From: a virus
Direction: 5' to 3' (one strand)
Length of the DNA stretch: 21,772 nt
IMG/VR virus record: IMGVR_UViG_3300024268_004547
Shown in pieces: positions 15,750 to 20,563 of this stretch. A program made the position numbers and the translations under genes. The notes beneath the pieces are model-generated. The model had not been told where the DNA came from and did not search any database. It saw only the letters and a list, made by a program, of their open reading frames with translations. Each line of letters opens with the position of its first letter. Position 1 is the first letter of the stretch.

Positions 15750-16375
15750 ATGATACAATTGTTTTATTGGAAGAAAGAAAGGAGATTACTACCTTCTTAT
15801 TGGATGATGGAGTTAAAACATTAGTCGATAATGTAATAACAACATCTGGTAGTAGTCTTGGATACGAGTATTCCAATAAGTGCATGGTTGACGACATACT
15901 CTGTATTTCAGACAAATCAGCAATAGGAAAGGAGTCACTCAGAAAATACACTGGTGACGACACAGAAGTTCCTGTCGGCGTCCTTGTCAATGAACCGGTT
16001 GTAATGACAAACGGCGAGAGAAAAGGAAGTGTACTACTACTCGGAGGACTTTACAGATTGAAACTGGCTTCAGGTCAAATTGTTAAAGCTGGTGACAGAA
16101 TCAAACTGACACCAAATGGAGCTATTGTTGACAATGCCGGGGAGTTCCTTGCTTTTCATCCTGTTGCAGACTCTGATGAATACAATTATGTCAATTGTTT
16201 CCAAGTAAGTCTTGGAGGTAAAGGAGAGAAAGGAGACACCGGAGATACAGGTGCTGCGACTGTAATCCTCGGGTCTTATGATACTTTCGAAGAACTAATT
16301 GCAGCACATCCAACTGCCAACGAAGGAGATGCCTTCCTAGTTGCAGGTGAACTATTCGTTTGGCATAATGATTAA
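15746..16375 (+). CDS. Capsid-decoration-like domain fused to a short collagen stretch and a half fibre module (putative head-fibre anchor)
   Basis: The N-domain is paralogous to 13438, followed by [13 protein letters not shown]. The protein ends in GSYDTFEELIAAHP...GDAFLVAGELFVWHND. Confidence 0.6.
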   Translation: MNDTIVLLEERKEITTFLLDDGVKTLVDNVITTSGSSLGYEYSNKCMVDDILCISDKSAIGKESLRKYTGDDTEVPVGVLVNEPVVMTNGERKGSVLLLGGLYRLKLASGQIVKAGDRIKLTPNGAIVDNAGEFLAFHPVADSDEYNYVNCFQVSLGGKGEKGDTGDTGAATVILGSYDTFEELIAAHPTANEGDAFLVAGELFVWHND

Positions 16376-16405
16376 TTTAAAATAAATAAATAGAGGTGTT
16401 TATAT

Positions 16406-17278
16406 ATGGCATGGAAAAGTGTTGGTGTAATCAAAGGACCAAAAGGAGATACTGGTGAGAAAGGAGAAAAGGGTGACACTGGAGACGCATTCACCTACGA
16501 CAAATTCACACCAGAACAATTAGCAGGCTTAACTGGTGAAAAAGGTGACACTGGTGCTAAAGGCGATACCGGTGATGTTGGTGCAACAGGTGCTACCGGA
16601 GCAACTGGTGAAAAAGGTGACACTGGAGCAACCGGCGCAACCGGTGCAAAAGGAGACACTGGTGAGCAAGGTTTAAAAGGTGATACTGGAGCAACCGGTG
16701 CAACCGGTGAAACAGGAGATCCATTCTCAATCTATAAAACCTACGAATCAGTTTCTGCAATGGAAGCTGATGCAAGTAATGTTCCTGAAGGAATGTTTGT
16801 AGCAATCCAATCAACAGTAGATGATCCAGATAACGCAAAGTTATACCTCAAAGGTGCAAGTGAATTCAGCTTCGTAACAGACATGTCTGGTGCCACAGGT
16901 CTTAAAGGAGACACAGGTGCCAAAGGTGACACTGGTGCCACAGGTGCAACAGGTCTTACAGGTGAGAAAGGAGATACTGGAGAAACTGGACCACAAGGAT
17001 TAACCGGTGATAAAGGGGACACTGGTGCTACTGGTGAAACCGGAGCAAAAGGTGATACCGGAAGAACCGGGGACAAAGGTGACACTGGAGATAAGGGAGA
17101 TACTGGGGATACCGGTGCTAAAGGTGACACTGGTGAAACCGGACCGCAAGGCCCTCAAGGATACAGTACCATCATCAAAGGAAGTTATGCAAGTTATGCT
17201 GATTTAATTGCAGCACATCCAACCGGAACCACTGGTGATGCATACCTTGTTGACGGAGAGCTTTACGTTTACCAATAA
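16406..17278 (+). CDS. Collagen-like fibre protein
   Basis: SD GAGGTG. Long Gly-X-Y tracts (GDT/GAT/GEK) flank a central globular insert ([16 protein letters not shown]...DNAKLYLKG), and the protein ends in a GSY...HP...[14 protein letters not shown] half module. Confidence 0.9.
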
Positions 17279-17296
17279 AATCCATTAAAATCCCTC

Positions 17297-17337
17297 AAAA
17301 GGAAGTGCTGGCTTAATAGTTAGCGCTTCCTTTTTTT
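17297..17337 (+). terminator. Intrinsic-type hairpin plus T-tract inside the fibre gene cluster
   Basis: AAAAGGAAGTGCT...AGCGCTTCCTTTT with a G-T-containing stem, followed by T7. Confidence 0.7.
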
Positions 17338-17689: not shown

Positions 17690-18528
17690 TTAATATGTCA
17701 TATACAGCTCCAGACCTTTCCGATATTCTATCTAATGAGCAGGAACTGAACACCAGATTAACAAGTTTAAAAACTTTACTTGAAAATCAACTGGATGATT
17801 TAAGCACAAGCCATTCCAGCAATGATTCAATTTTAAAGTTAATAAGTATGATAAGCAATCCTCCAGTCTGGAAGATTGAGAGAAGTTCAACATATGATTC
17901 TGGCCAATTGGGAGATCGTGTTGCAGTAACCGGATGTGATGTATATTCATGGAACAGATACAATCCAACAACCTATGAAGATAACGATTACTGGTATCTT
18001 CAATCTTTAGCAAAGAGTTCAAATGCAACAGCATGGGGATTATTCAACACAGGCACAATCAATCCAACAGATAGTTTTGATTTGGTAGTATATGGAAGAG
18101 CAATGGCTAACTTTAACAATAATGCTTTTTCAGGCGTAGGTTTTAGCTATGGTACTCCAACAGCAAATTCTCCATTCTCAGGTTTTTATATTGGAATTAC
18201 ATTAGATTCAGGAACATATCATCCGGCATATGCAATATTCAATAACAGTACAACACCAACAATAACAAAAATGGATTATGGAACATATGATTCCACAAAC
18301 CAAAAATTCAGATTACACATGATACATGATGAGGATTATTTGGCAGTATACTGGTTTAAGGATAAGGAATTCCTATGGAATGATTGGATTAACATATCAG
18401 ATTTACCATCCGGATATTCCAGTGCAGATTTGAAGATGAGTTATGTAAGCCATGGAACAGGCCTTGGAAGAAATGCATATGTTCCTAGACTGGAGTTGGC
18501 CTCACCATGCAGATTAAACATATTATAA
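17686..18528 (+). CDS. Putative receptor-binding/fibre-tip protein (N-terminal coiled coil, beta-sandwich C-terminus)
   Basis: The helical N-terminus (LNTRLTSLKTLLENQL) is followed by an aromatic-rich beta region. The start is probably ATG 17695. Confidence 0.45.
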   Translation: MINMSYTAPDLSDILSNEQELNTRLTSLKTLLENQLDDLSTSHSSNDSILKLISMISNPPVWKIERSSTYDSGQLGDRVAVTGCDVYSWNRYNPTTYEDNDYWYLQSLAKSSNATAWGLFNTGTINPTDSFDLVVYGRAMANFNNNAFSGVGFSYGTPTANSPFSGFYIGITLDSGTYHPAYAIFNNSTTPTITKMDYGTYDSTNQKFRLHMIHDEDYLAVYWFKDKEFLWNDWINISDLPSGYSSADLKMSYVSHGTGLGRNAYVPRLELASPCRLNIL

Positions 18529-18543
18529 TAGGGGTGATTAAAA

Positions 18544-19626
18544 TTGTCAATTGCAAGTGATGTAATCAATACAAATACAAAATTAACAGCCGTAAGGAAT
18601 GCATTGAGGGAATTATTAACAGAGCACGGAATAGTCTATTATAGCGATGATGATGTTTTCACATTAGCACGAAGAGTATGGTTTTTAGTTCATCCAACTA
18701 ATGGAGCACCTGGAGGCTCATACACTGAGGCGGCTGCAGTCGGCCAACCAGTTAATGTTAGTGTTTACAAGGATTGTGATGATGATGCAGAATTGCCTGA
18801 TGGTGCGGTTGCGGATTTTATCATAAGCATCAACGGTGAAGAGAAAATCCATATCAAATCATTATTCGATAACGGCACTGCTCGGTGTTCATATGTTCCT
18901 GAAAATGCTGGAGATACATTATCAATCAAAGCATTAGTTAATGATTATGTAGGAGTGCATTTTGAAAAGGAAGTATTGGCATTCAGATATAAAGACGAAT
19001 ATACTGTGAGTTCTGATTCATATACGCTAGTTAAATATCCAAGTACTGCAGACATTACCGTTAGTGAAGTGGCTGAATTCAACAGTTCTTATGATTATGT
19101 TAATGCGATTGAAATTTCAAAAACCTACGGTGCAGCACAGGCCGCTTATTTGATACCAACCAGTTTAATTGAAGGTGTGGATTTATCTGAAAAGGGAATT
19201 CACTTCTCATCTTTTGTAAGTCCAATGTATTCATCATCAAGCGGTTGGGCTTCAGGAATTTGCCTTCTGAATTCAAAAACATTAACACACTACCGTGACA
19301 ACAAGATACTGGAACTTGGAGCATATCCCGGTAAAAAGGGATTGCAATATTCAGGAACCGATCATACAATAAATACGATAAATACAACAACCGGACAGTT
19401 AAGCATTAATGGTGCCTATAAATTTAATTTATGGTATGATGGAGCATATGTTAAAGCTACAATCACAGATTACTGGGGAACAACAACATATTATAGCTAT
19501 GAAACATCCTCACTTCCAGATGCAATAGCTAATATGGACACAGTATTTCCAGCATTCATGATTTATGATTACGGTGGAAAAATAAGATTCAGAGAAACAG
19601 TTATAGAACCATGGAGCAAGGATTAA
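18544..19626 (+). CDS. Putative receptor-binding/fibre-tip protein
   Basis: TTG start after SD GGGGTGA. N-terminal SIASDV...AVRNALRELLTEHGI helix of the kind seen in phage fibre proteins, then an Ig-like segment and a lectin-like beta-rich C-terminus. Confidence 0.45.
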   Translation: MSIASDVINTNTKLTAVRNALRELLTEHGIVYYSDDDVFTLARRVWFLVHPTNGAPGGSYTEAAAVGQPVNVSVYKDCDDDAELPDGAVADFIISINGEEKIHIKSLFDNGTARCSYVPENAGDTLSIKALVNDYVGVHFEKEVLAFRYKDEYTVSSDSYTLVKYPSTADITVSEVAEFNSSYDYVNAIEISKTYGAAQAAYLIPTSLIEGVDLSEKGIHFSSFVSPMYSSSSGWASGICLLNSKTLTHYRDNKILELGAYPGKKGLQYSGTDHTINTINTTTGQLSINGAYKFNLWYDGAYVKATITDYWGTTTYYSYETSSLPDAIANMDTVFPAFMIYDYGGKIRFRETVIEPWSKD

Positions 19627-19627
19627 G

Positions 19628-20563
19628 ATGGCTGAAAAAGAATGGATAGAAATCGGACCTGTGAGAGGAGATACAGGACCTAAAGGAGATACTGGAGACA
19701 TTGGAATTGGAACTGTAATAAAAGGACATTATGATAATTACTCAGAGTTCATTGCAGTTCACCCTTCAGGTAGTTTAGGTGATGCATATATAGTAGATGG
19801 CAGCTATTACTACTGGAACGAAAACGGCTGGGCAAATGCAGGCTCTGTAAAAGGTGATACTGGAGCAACAGGTGAGAAAGGACAACAAGGACCTAAAGGA
19901 GATACTGGAGATACAGGAGCTACTGGCGATACTGGACCGGCCGGGGCAAAGGGGGACACTGGAGCTACTGGCACTGGCATCACTATTAAAGGTTCGTATA
20001 ATACTTATGAGGAATTAATAGCTGAACATCCAACTGGTAATGATGGAGATAGCTATTTAGTAAACGGATCTCTTTATGTCTGGAATGGAGCTGCTTGGGA
20101 AAACGTAGGAAACATAAAAGGAGAAAAAGGAGATACTGGAGCTACAGGTGCAACTGGAGCAACCGGAAGTAAAGGTGATAAAGGAGACAAAGGCGATACT
20201 GGTGCAACAGGTCAGGGCAGTGATGAGGAGGCCGGATGGAAGTTACCAGTTGATAAAATACAAACCACAACAACATTGCCGACAGGTGTCAGTAAAGGTT
20301 ATCGTGTAGCTATTGTAACCAGTTCTGTCATGGCCATTAAAGAGTATAACGGCAGTTCATGGGATACTGAAACACTTGACCAGTATTCAGTGATACCTTT
20401 AAAGCATTCTGGAAGTATACAGATGTATTTGGCAAAATCAACAGGGCCAGTTTATATGGGTGTTGAATATGGTGTCTTTGGTAAGTTTAGATTTATGACT
20501 CAGGCAGCATATGATGCGTTAGGTAGCTATGATGAGGATACAATTTATTTTGTGAGAAGCTAA
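19628..20563 (+). CDS. Collagen-like fibre protein with two complete repeat modules
   Basis: Gly-X-Y tracts and two full I.GSY...HP.G..GD.Y.V.G..YxWNxxxWxNxGxxKG modules. The C-terminus is MTQAAYDALGSYDEDTIYFVRS. Confidence 0.9.
   Translation: MAEKEWIEIGPVRGDTGPKGDTGDIGIGTVIKGHYDNYSEFIAVHPSGSLGDAYIVDGSYYYWNENGWANAGSVKGDTGATGEKGQQGPKGDTGDTGATGDTGPAGAKGDTGATGTGITIKGSYNTYEELIAEHPTGNDGDSYLVNGSLYVWNGAAWENVGNIKGEKGDTGATGATGATGSKGDKGDKGDTGATGQGSDEEAGWKLPVDKIQTTTTLPTGVSKGYRVAIVTSSVMAIKEYNGSSWDTETLDQYSVIPLKHSGSIQMYLAKSTGPVYMGVEYGVFGKFRFMTQAAYDALGSYDEDTIYFVRS

Follow-up and report, generated by a model that had tools for sequence, protein, structure and literature searches.

A collagen-like virion fibre broken by gene fission into three polypeptides in a tailed virus or provirus of Methanobrevibacter

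The fibre genes and the anchor protein

The window, a stretch of 21,772 nucleotides (IMG/VR record IMGVR_UViG_3300024268_004547), belongs to a tailed Methanobrevibacter virus or provirus. The genes and features described here are listed below by position in the window; a C-terminal half module is called a socket, and an N-terminal tryptophan strand a plug.

15156..15749, plus strand: glycosyltransferase-like gene, its stop overlapping the anchor gene start; weak Pfam matches to Anp1 and Glyco_transf_21, both below the gathering cut-offs
15746..16375, plus strand: anchor protein, 209 aa, with a capsid-decoration-like domain (aa 1 to ~155), 5 Gly-X-Y triplets and a socket half
16259..16363, plus strand: socket 1, with strand 1, helix, strand 2 and strand 3, then HND and the stop
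16376..16405, no strand assigned: spacer of junction 1, 30 nt, containing two in-frame stops and AGAGGTG as the Shine-Dalgarno sequence
16406..17278, plus strand: extender protein, 290 aa, with plug 1, collagen, a 12-residue element, collagen, a ~55-aa middle domain, collagen and socket 2
16406..16438, plus strand: plug 1, 11 residues equal to strand 4 of the module, then collagen
17168..17272, plus strand: socket 2, with strand 1, helix, strand 2 and strand 3, ending in LYVYQ and the stop
17279..17365, no strand assigned: junction 2 spacer, 87 nt, with 3 in-frame stops, a 17-bp hairpin (17297-17334) followed by U7, and the Shine-Dalgarno sequence AAAGGTGAT
17366..17689, plus strand: hub protein, 107 aa, composed of plug 2, a small beta module, a short collagen stretch and a conserved C-terminal segment whose last residues are SNLTLLGS
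17366-17398, plus strand: plug 2, MAWINVGNLKG
17686..18528, plus strand: conserved protein of 280 aa encoded after the hub, found in every locus type with a hub
18544..19626, plus strand: conserved protein of 360 aa, its gene immediately ahead of the tip gene
19628..20563, plus strand: tip fibre protein, 311 aa, with an N-terminal tryptophan motif, two intact modules, collagen and a C-terminal tip domain
19643-19669, plus strand: tryptophan motif EWIEIGPVRG, of the pattern W..IG.V.G, as in strand 4
19712-19855 and 19979-20122, plus strand: intact modules of the tip protein (translation; AF2 model of module 2)

In every related locus, the conserved glycosyltransferase-like gene precedes the anchor gene. 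The 280-aa and 360-aa proteins had no match in Pfam or PHROG.

The anchor protein ends in GSYDTFEELIAAHPTANEGDAFLVAGELFVWHND, followed by the stop codon. A total of 653 homologues were found, and the best 120 were all 191-210 aa in length. Of these 120, 118 terminate in VW plus 2-3 residues, and the other two carry conservative substitutions (...FVSHND and ...FIWHN). A Pfam search with the anchor domain gave no match. Foldseek analysis of the anchor model matched the capsid decoration chains of HFTV1 (E = 8e-4), and matches were also obtained to the phi29 gp8.5 head-fibre base, Pam3, T1, FCWL1, TW1 and lambda gpD. Both hit lists were headed mostly by capsid decoration proteins (8qsy, E = 8e-4, probability 1.0; 6qyy; 8hdt; 9kmh, Z = 6.6), with a fold similarity that is modest (Z at most 6.6, below 8; TM 0.2-0.4; one of five models confident). 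The earlier note had described this N-terminal domain as decoration-like, and the fold matches to capsid decoration and head-fibre base proteins agree with that description. As the modelled domain resembles capsid decoration proteins, a head fibre is suggested, and the anchor protein most likely sits on the capsid, which would give a head fibre instead of a tail fibre. The annotation would be corrected accordingly, with a capsid-decoration domain as the probable base of what have been called tail fibre proteins. A 160-aa protein of vir323 is a stand-alone paralogue of the anchor (52% identical) and is located directly upstream of the HK97-fold major head gene; the adjacency to the major capsid gene is that of this stand-alone paralogue, and the fibre-bearing copy sits in the fibre block.

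The phi29 protein gp8.5 is likewise a trimeric fibre on a capsid-binding base of the beta-tulip type (PMC7602432), and the anchor model matches this base (6qyy, Foldseek E = 2.5e-3, VIA Z = 5.6). However, gp8.5 consists of one polypeptide whose shaft is a helical supercoil, whereas here a collagen-like shaft extends over three genes. The Bacillus phage SPP1 protein gp12 is a collagen-like trimer attached to the capsid (PMC7602432), as is proposed for the present fibre, but it is one small protein at the hexamer centres, and has no decoration-type anchor domain, inter-collagen module or split.

The extender contains ~190 residues of collagen, interrupted by two small insert domains, and matches Pfam Collagen at E = 5.9e-27 (PF01391, 93.7 bits, gathering cut-off 27.2). 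Genes 15746 (5 triplets only) and 17366 (short runs only) obtained no score with this family. The extender and the hub have no anchor domain of their own.

An inter-collagen module cut in a single loop

The module found between collagen stretches is of ~45 residues with the order strand-helix-strand-strand-strand. Translation places it whole twice in gene 19628 (aa 29-76 and 118-165), while the C-terminal copies in genes 15746 and 16406 end after the third strand. The missing tryptophan strand (strand 4) forms the N-terminus of genes 16406 and 17366, each the next gene downstream. Both cuts are in the loop joining strands 3 and 4. In the AF2 model of the intact module (module 2 of 19628, from a 62-sequence alignment), the tryptophan strand is predicted to be a beta strand within the module (pLDDT 87-96). 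In the AF2 model of 15746, which has only the half module, this half was still predicted to be folded (E174-178, H181-187, E196-199, E202-205), with a pLDDT of only 69-80. The fold matches of the module were modest (Z at most 5.3), and no sequence match to PDB chains was identified.

The comparison set comprised 39 junctions in 22 loci of related Methanobrevibacter viruses and proviruses, from different samples. In every one of the 39, a C-terminal half module directly precedes a gene that opens with the tryptophan strand; the split module reported in the earlier note is therefore real, and far beyond chance. The split point was fixed throughout, within the same loop of the module. The junctions fall into three classes that differ in sequence: VWH(N/R)D and stop, then MAW.S(V/A)G; V(Y/F)Q and stop, then M.W(V/I)NVG; and VWEE and stop, then MTW..(V/I/A)G. 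A total of 196 distinct intact modules were collected, some of them from the tip proteins of this same lineage; the W, G and G of strand 4, invariant across intact modules, are retained in all plugs. In phages outside this virus lineage, many of which carry the module between collagen stretches, it is always unsplit, being intact in all of ~70 IMG/VR loci. The best 150 of 1377 profile matches included 85 internal modules, and the complete C-terminal ones among these 150 were all from this lineage.

The extender gene is under constraint: across 14 distinct orthologous sequences, its regions gave dN/dS values of 0.065-0.32 (pS 0.35-0.55); socket 2 is its most constrained part (0.065), and plug 1 has a value of 0.32. 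The 39 cuts in one loop and these ratios substantiate the proposal of a fixed, conserved split point under selection.

Among more distant relatives, fused or singly split forms were identified. In P0124, P0135 and 14 loci, the anchor, collagen and the C-terminal part of the hub appear as a single protein. Six loci are split once, into anchor-socket and plug-extender-middle-hub, and in five of these the spacer is 3 nt long, with GGAGG inside the WEE codons. In the Type II loci, the cut is a mere stop and start within the loop. In P0121 and L003, one protein combines the anchor with an intact module and the tip domain. A check of homologous loci for fusion or random splitting returned fused forms, yet every split falls in the same loop and the splitting is not random; the refuting outcome that the earlier note had in mind was therefore not obtained. 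The gene order of anchor, extender and hub is conserved among the relatives, and the fused relatives show the anchor, the extender and the C-terminal part of 17366 type to be successive sections of a single fibre. The hub-bearing fused forms lack a module at this point, and so demonstrate that the parts are of one fibre, but not the manner of joining.

Translation signals and spacers at the junctions

The sequences AGAGGTG and AAAGGTGAT are located 7-8 nt 5' of the ATGs of 16406 and 17366, respectively, and a Shine-Dalgarno sequence and an ATG are present ahead of each plug across the 39 junctions. In the relatives, the junction 1 spacers measure 3-35 nt and those of junction 2 measure 8-94 nt, with all three frames used. 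The pieces are thus separate translation units, in agreement with the earlier note, which had assigned the downstream genes their own Shine-Dalgarno sequence and ATG. Its count of two in-frame stops per junction holds for junction 1, but junction 2 has three; the stops are TAA and TAG. The terminator that it placed at the second junction is present as the 17-bp hairpin followed by U7 (z = -6.2 vs shuffles). In two loci with an 8-nt junction 2 spacer, this hairpin is absent.

Recoding, in which the ribosome would read through or hop the junctions to yield one long protein, would be compatible with the observation that junctions 1 and 2 are both in frame within the window. However, two and three in-frame stops would have to be passed, the spacers of the relatives range from 3 to 94 nt and are multiples of three at only 23 of the 39 junctions, every downstream gene is provided with a Shine-Dalgarno sequence and an ATG, and junction 2 has the strong hairpin followed by U7. 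Simple readthrough had already been considered unlikely, and these results make recoding highly improbable and close to refuted.

The possibility that these open reading frames are pieces of a disrupted gene, produced by decay or by assembly error, finds nothing in its favour other than the existence of fused relatives. The same cuts are seen in hundreds of independent assemblies (653 anchor homologues), as well as in the 22 loci of different samples and in one GenBank virus genome, and the genes are under strong purifying selection. The recurrent cuts across independent assemblies and the purifying selection refute this explanation.

The region 15746-17689 encodes one collagen-like virion fibre broken by gene fission into three polypeptides. 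The fission is fixed, and is not decay, assembly error or readthrough, because the cuts lie in one loop, the downstream genes each start from a ribosome-binding site and ATG of their own, the spacers use all three frames, selection is purifying, fused relatives exist, and modules outside the lineage are unsplit.

Proposed rejoining of the module halves

Following separate translation of the anchor (decoration-like domain, 5 collagen triplets and socket), extender and hub, the N-terminal plug of each downstream protein would complete the three-stranded socket at the C-terminus of the preceding one. The rebuilt module would then link trimers end to end, from anchor to extender to hub, and with the anchor seated on the capsid a head fibre would result. 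As the fused relatives place the anchor, extender and hub part in one fibre, non-covalent rejoining at the split module is the simplest reading. We consider it reasonable to infer that the split halves rejoin by strand complementation, with about an even chance that this is so.

Alternatively, the fission could lie at the border of two self-sufficient units with no strand complementation, a reading that is possible but rather doubtful. The half module would act as a C-terminal trimerisation cap and the tryptophan strand as an N-terminal cap or docking peptide, and the downstream proteins would reach the particle by other contact or act unattached. The predicted folding of the half module by itself is consistent with this, as is a weak likeness of the module to the trimerisation domain of the multiplexin collagens XV/XVIII (3n3f, 3hsh, 9bnb), which has ~55 residues, four strands and one helix, and lies beside a collagen helix. 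The whole module matched this domain within the chance range (3n3f, Z = 4.0, rmsd 4.2 over 51 residues; 9bnb, Z = 3.7; Foldseek E 0.16-0.2), and the half module matches its first ~40 residues. The multiplexin domain ends a collagen helix and has no sequence similarity to the module, which sits between two collagen stretches. Points against self-sufficient units are the plug-first gene directly after each socket (39/39), the lack of an anchor domain in the extender and hub, set against the link of hub to anchor in fused relatives, the place of the strand in the sheet of the intact-module model, and the Type II cut, which is just a stop and start inside the loop.

Strand complementation, if it occurs, would share the logic of chaperone-usher pili, in which each subunit is short of its last strand and takes it from the N-terminal peptide of the subunit that follows; the sequence arrangement here fits this scheme. 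The parts differ, the pilus subunit being an Ig-like pilin lacking the G strand, and the present one a 45-residue alpha/beta module in a trimer of an archaeal virus. No chaperone or usher Pfam families were found in the nine proteins of the block, and there were no pilins among the fold matches of the module. By analogy, the split-module system may work like donor-strand complementation, but is not a member of it.

The long tail fibre of T4 (gp34, gp35, gp36 and gp37) is built from several proteins of neighbouring genes through non-covalent end-to-end joints (PMC5537660). It shares with the present fibre the derivation of successive segments from adjacent genes, and differs in being a tail fibre with beta-structured shafts; in the present case, the same parts are fused in relatives. 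To our knowledge, the T4 joints have not been described as halves of one split domain. Multi-protein phage fibres are well known, and segment-to-segment recognition is understood for few of them. The locus is a very clean natural case, since close relatives carry the fibre fused, split once and split twice, with all cuts in one loop. If the halves do rejoin, this would represent a new kind of fibre joint, by fragment complementation of an inter-collagen module, and the first glimpse of how head fibres are built in viruses infecting gut and rumen methanogens. The locus would also provide a compact natural trimer-to-trimer connector usable in protein engineering.

The earlier note had gone further, to a universal socket and plug with gene 19628 as a cap, a self-polymerising extender and combinatorial fibres of variable length, which we regard as unlikely. 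Self-polymerisation and variable length found no support, as the extender is 290 aa long in 16 of 17 complete copies and the plug and socket pairs are distinct and conserved. The two plugs differ from each other at fixed positions in all loci, as do the two sockets, so cognate pairs would fit better than free mixing. In favour of this reading, gene 19628 (N-terminus MAEKEWIEIGPVRG) opens with the strand 4 pattern, and the tip of P0121 and L003 is connected to the anchor by an intact module. The motif is also mostly EWIEIG in socket-bearing loci and EWIA(I/L)G in socket-less ones, a difference confounded by relatedness. However, the tip motif is equally conserved in 12 loci and four whole genome assemblies without any free half module, which weakens the case for 19628 as a cap in the same socket and is in line with self-sufficient units. 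As the motif is kept where no socket exists, such a strand can serve a role that needs no socket.

There is only a small likelihood that the split module is a general plug-and-socket connector, with one capsid-bound anchor trimer taking either the extender and hub with the two downstream proteins, or the 19628 tip. Were this true, one virus would show several head-fibre types, swappable as cassettes by recombination, and strand complementation would be an assembly principle for collagen-like viral fibres. Gene 19628 instead appears to encode a separate fibre, with a tryptophan motif independent of these sockets. Its protein matches Pfam Collagen (PF01391, 41.5 bits vs a cut-off of 27.2) and, at residues 286-310, Phage_tail_C (PF24243, 41.7 bits vs a gathering cut-off of 23.7).

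Split junctions and their conservation

Translation of the window showed that the anchor gene (15746; genes are named by their start positions) runs through the opening 35 residues of the ~45-residue inter-collagen module and stops after a further HND. The extender gene (16406) begins 30 nt after it, opening [11 protein letters not shown], and closes on this 35-residue module part again, here followed by Q. The hub gene (17366) begins 87 nt after the extender and opens MAWINVGNLKG. The tip fibre gene (19628) encodes the complete module twice and opens EWIEIGPVRG. The C-terminal half module (strands 1-3 and the helix) is termed the socket, and the N-terminal tryptophan strand (strand 4) the plug. 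Every sequence quoted in the earlier note matched the translation. The two in-frame stops it reported per junction were present at junction 1 (15746/16406), whereas junction 2 (16406/17366) has three. The terminator it placed at the second junction was found there as a hairpin of 17 bp with a run of seven U behind it (z = -6.2).

The fibre block (15746-20563) shares 79% nucleotide identity across its first 2 kb, and an identical gene order, with Caudoviricetes sp. vir323, a circular 34-kb virus genome assigned to Methanobacteriales. The anchor homologues carry the source name Methanobrevibacter, and a scan of species-representative genomes gave 70 related loci; rumen and gut assemblies of Methanobrevibacter account for 67. 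The best 120 of 653 anchor homologues were 83-96% identical and all 191-210 aa long; 118 of these end in ...VW plus two or three residues, and the remaining two show conservative substitutions (...FVSHND and ...FIWHN). Loci from assemblies and genomes were annotated by script (16 cut at both points, 2 further ones cut at the first and truncated beyond it, and 6 cut only once), and a gene opening with the tryptophan strand was present directly 3' of all 39 C-terminal half modules, the ORF caller having chosen an alternative start upstream in two loci. The separate genes always break in the same loop of the module, so that the conservation of the split point expected from the earlier note was borne out.

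In the relatives, junction 1 has spacers of 3-35 nt and junction 2 spacers of 8-94 nt; the joined genes stand in any of the three relative frames, and the ATG of every plug gene has a Shine-Dalgarno sequence (AGGTG or GGAGG) ahead of it. Across 14 distinct extender gene sequences (synonymous divergence 0.35-0.55), dN/dS was 0.065 in the C-terminal half module, 0.32 in the plug and 0.08-0.21 elsewhere. Readthrough, which the earlier note had already considered unlikely, and hopping were thus ruled out by the variable spacer lengths and frames, the separate Shine-Dalgarno sites and starts, and the dN/dS values; pseudogene formation or decay and assembly error were ruled out on the same statistics together with the conserved junctions. 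Two mini proteins consisting of a plug plus a socket (P0283 and P0291), which resemble short natural extenders, were set aside. As their contigs are just 597 and 645 bp, they are probably assembly chimeras formed via the collagen repeats.

The split is a gene fission, conserved and under selection, of a single collagen-like fibre that is probably anchored on the capsid. The split is specific to one lineage of Methanobrevibacter viruses. Literature searches covering viruses of Methanobrevibacter, collagen-like fibres of phages, and head fibres gave no account of it; the MSTV1 paper makes no mention of collagen or fibres (PMC11375127).

The module and its fused and split arrangements

A profile of the first 35 module residues matched 1377 proteins in the representative library at E up to 0.001, and 92 module places were confirmed in IMG/VR. 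The ~70 IMG/VR loci outside this virus lineage all have an intact module placed between stretches of collagen. Overall, 196 distinct intact modules were collected. The module alone matched no Pfam family, even at E = 10, and gave no sequence match in the PDB beyond chance hits, these being designed TPR proteins found via the motif AEAWYNLGN. An AF2 model from a 62-sequence alignment, which excludes the collagen flanks, has a strand at 17-21, a helix at 24-30 and strands at 39-42, 45-49 and 54-59 (pLDDT 87-96). From this topology, the tryptophan strand is predicted to be the fourth strand of the module, with the cut in the loop preceding it. Fold matches were weak: the best was the N-terminal domain of GVE2 ORF18 (Z = 5.3), for which the literature search found no paper, followed by the trimerisation domain of collagen XV/XVIII (Z = 3.7-4.0), and tailspike N-terminal domains also matched weakly. 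The modelled likeness to a collagen trimerisation unit is a lead only.

The search for longer anchor homologues and the locus survey identified four gene layouts:

Type I (the window): anchor-socket, then plug-extender-socket, then plug-hub; three genes.
Type II (L091, L108, L109, L110, L121, L125): anchor-socket, then a single plug-extender-middle-hub protein.
Type III (14 loci; P0124, P0135 and others): anchor, collagen and hub C-terminus fused, 287-379 aa, without the module.
Type IV (L003; P0121): anchor, collagen, intact module, collagen and tip domain fused, 384 aa.

By the fused layouts, anchor, extender and hub are successive parts of one fibre, in that order. Five of the six Type II loci have a spacer of 3 nt (TGG GAG GAA TAA GAA ATG ACC TGG), and the junction in these five is a mere stop and start within the loop, with the ribosome-binding site inside the WEE codons. 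A second small inter-collagen element, S.NVYKD..HG.IIF....T...Y.SELKG, was observed at window 17366-17689 and at L001:12130-13395; it occurs in the hub, in fused anchors (P0124) and in some tip proteins. Other inserts that have been shuffled include [14 protein letters not shown] and the extender's middle domain of 55 aa. The fibre proteins resemble mosaics put together from a small set of such beads.

Proposed rejoining of the halves, and the tip protein

After the fission, the plug would complete the socket of the preceding protein, so that the parts rejoin by strand complementation. That the halves meet again in the particle is argued most strongly from gene fusion: the parts belong to one fibre, and as separate genes they always break in the same module loop. 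Strand complementation is the best-supported mechanism of rejoining, and we give it an even chance. A complex prediction with custom alignments (three copies of 15746 residues 160-209 and three of 16406 residues 1-40) scored 0.53, against 0.52 for one unrelated control. Socket and plug columns were also compared for covariation, with signals too weak for a compatibility score (189 intact modules, ~54 effective sequences).

The alternative that the tryptophan strand works on its own, without a socket, has a probability of about a quarter, and is kept mainly for the behaviour of the tip protein. The tip motif (E/D)(W)I(A/S)(I/L)G.V.G is kept in 12 of 12 Type III loci with a visible tip start, none of which has a free half module. 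A half-module profile was searched against five whole assemblies with a clear outcome in four (G001, G003, G004, G005), where it matched solely inside the tip gene itself. The tip motif thus appears to have a role needing no socket, and the proposal that 19628 caps the same socket is weakened. The cap role and combinatorial fibres, taken jointly, are improbable. The motif is mostly EWIEIG in loci with sockets and EWIA(I/L)G in those without, a difference that may reflect simple relatedness.

The C-terminus of the conserved 360-aa protein upstream of the tip (18544) was considered as an alternative tip socket and was not socket-like by sequence inspection. In L129:9001-9495, L134 and L147, the stand-alone 164-aa decoration paralogue ends ...RPYDIGETGQT, equivalent to two Gly-X-Y-like triplets; we wondered whether this stub could be a tip docking point in viruses without a socket. 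The tip gene is frameshifted in L005 (10041-10706 and 10493 onward; Type III, no socket), in L006 and L007, and in L099:13009-14420 (Type I), and is intact in most other loci.

Under strand complementation, the earlier note had envisaged a self-polymerising extender and a fibre of variable length. Plug 1, W.S(V/A)G.I(K/Q)GPKG, is distinguished from plug 2, W(V/I)NVG.(I/L)KG(D/E)TG, by fixed positions in every locus. Fixed-position differences also separate socket 1 (...TANEGDAFLV..., ending VWHND) from socket 2 (...[10 protein letters not shown]..., ending V(Y/F)Q), and the extender is 290 aa long in 16 of 17 complete copies. With these fixed differences and the nearly constant length, two cognate joints in a fibre of defined length would fit better than a ladder.

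The anchor, its probable particle site and neighbouring genes

The best AF2 model of 15746 had a pLDDT of 79.6, the other four models being poor, and its N-terminal domain is all-beta (pLDDT ~90). Nearly all structural neighbours of the model are proteins that decorate or cement capsids, with modest scores (including HFTV1, the phi29 head-fibre gp8.5 base, Pam3, T1, FCWL1, BB1, Sf11, TW1 and lambda gpD), in line with the decoration domain proposed for this protein. A stand-alone anchor paralogue of 160-164 aa (52% identical) immediately precedes the HK97-fold major head gene in vir323 and recurs in many genomes of the set. Decoration proteins that sit as trimers on the three-fold sites of capsids are established (PMC7602432). 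Growth of a collagen trimer from a trimeric decoration base would be natural. On this basis, we give a probability of about two-thirds to the anchored fibres being head fibres. The PHROG 'tail fiber' labels of the fibre genes derive from the collagen repeats.

The 255-aa protein at window 13438-14205 has a third, more distant copy of the anchor domain in its N-terminal 150 residues (26% identity, E = 2e-11), an unrelated C-terminal part and a weak match to Pfam DUF6808. With this protein counted, the virus family has three or four putative decoration-domain proteins. In some Type I viruses (L093:7814-8986, L104, L105, L107, L140 and L143), the gene for another protein with an anchor domain is inserted after the 360-aa gene and ahead of the tip gene; its 390-aa product has a C-terminal domain that is not collagen, as in P0169 and P0184.

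A glycosyltransferase-like gene (window 15156-15749) overlaps with its stop the anchor gene's GTG start and keeps its position in all related loci. The collagen triplets of the fibre are mostly G-x-T, so it may be O-glycosylated. Two small overlapping genes (window 20627-21245) lie immediately 3' of the tip gene and, by eye, resemble a toxin-antitoxin pair of the nucleotidyltransferase (MNT) and HEPN kind (GSYARGE...DLD, and R....H close to the C-terminus). In relatives this position is taken by an HTH_45 gene. A Pycsar-like pair (Pfam Guanylate_cyc and PycTM) was observed at L005:1-823, ~6 kb upstream of the fibre block and on the same contig as this Type III locus.
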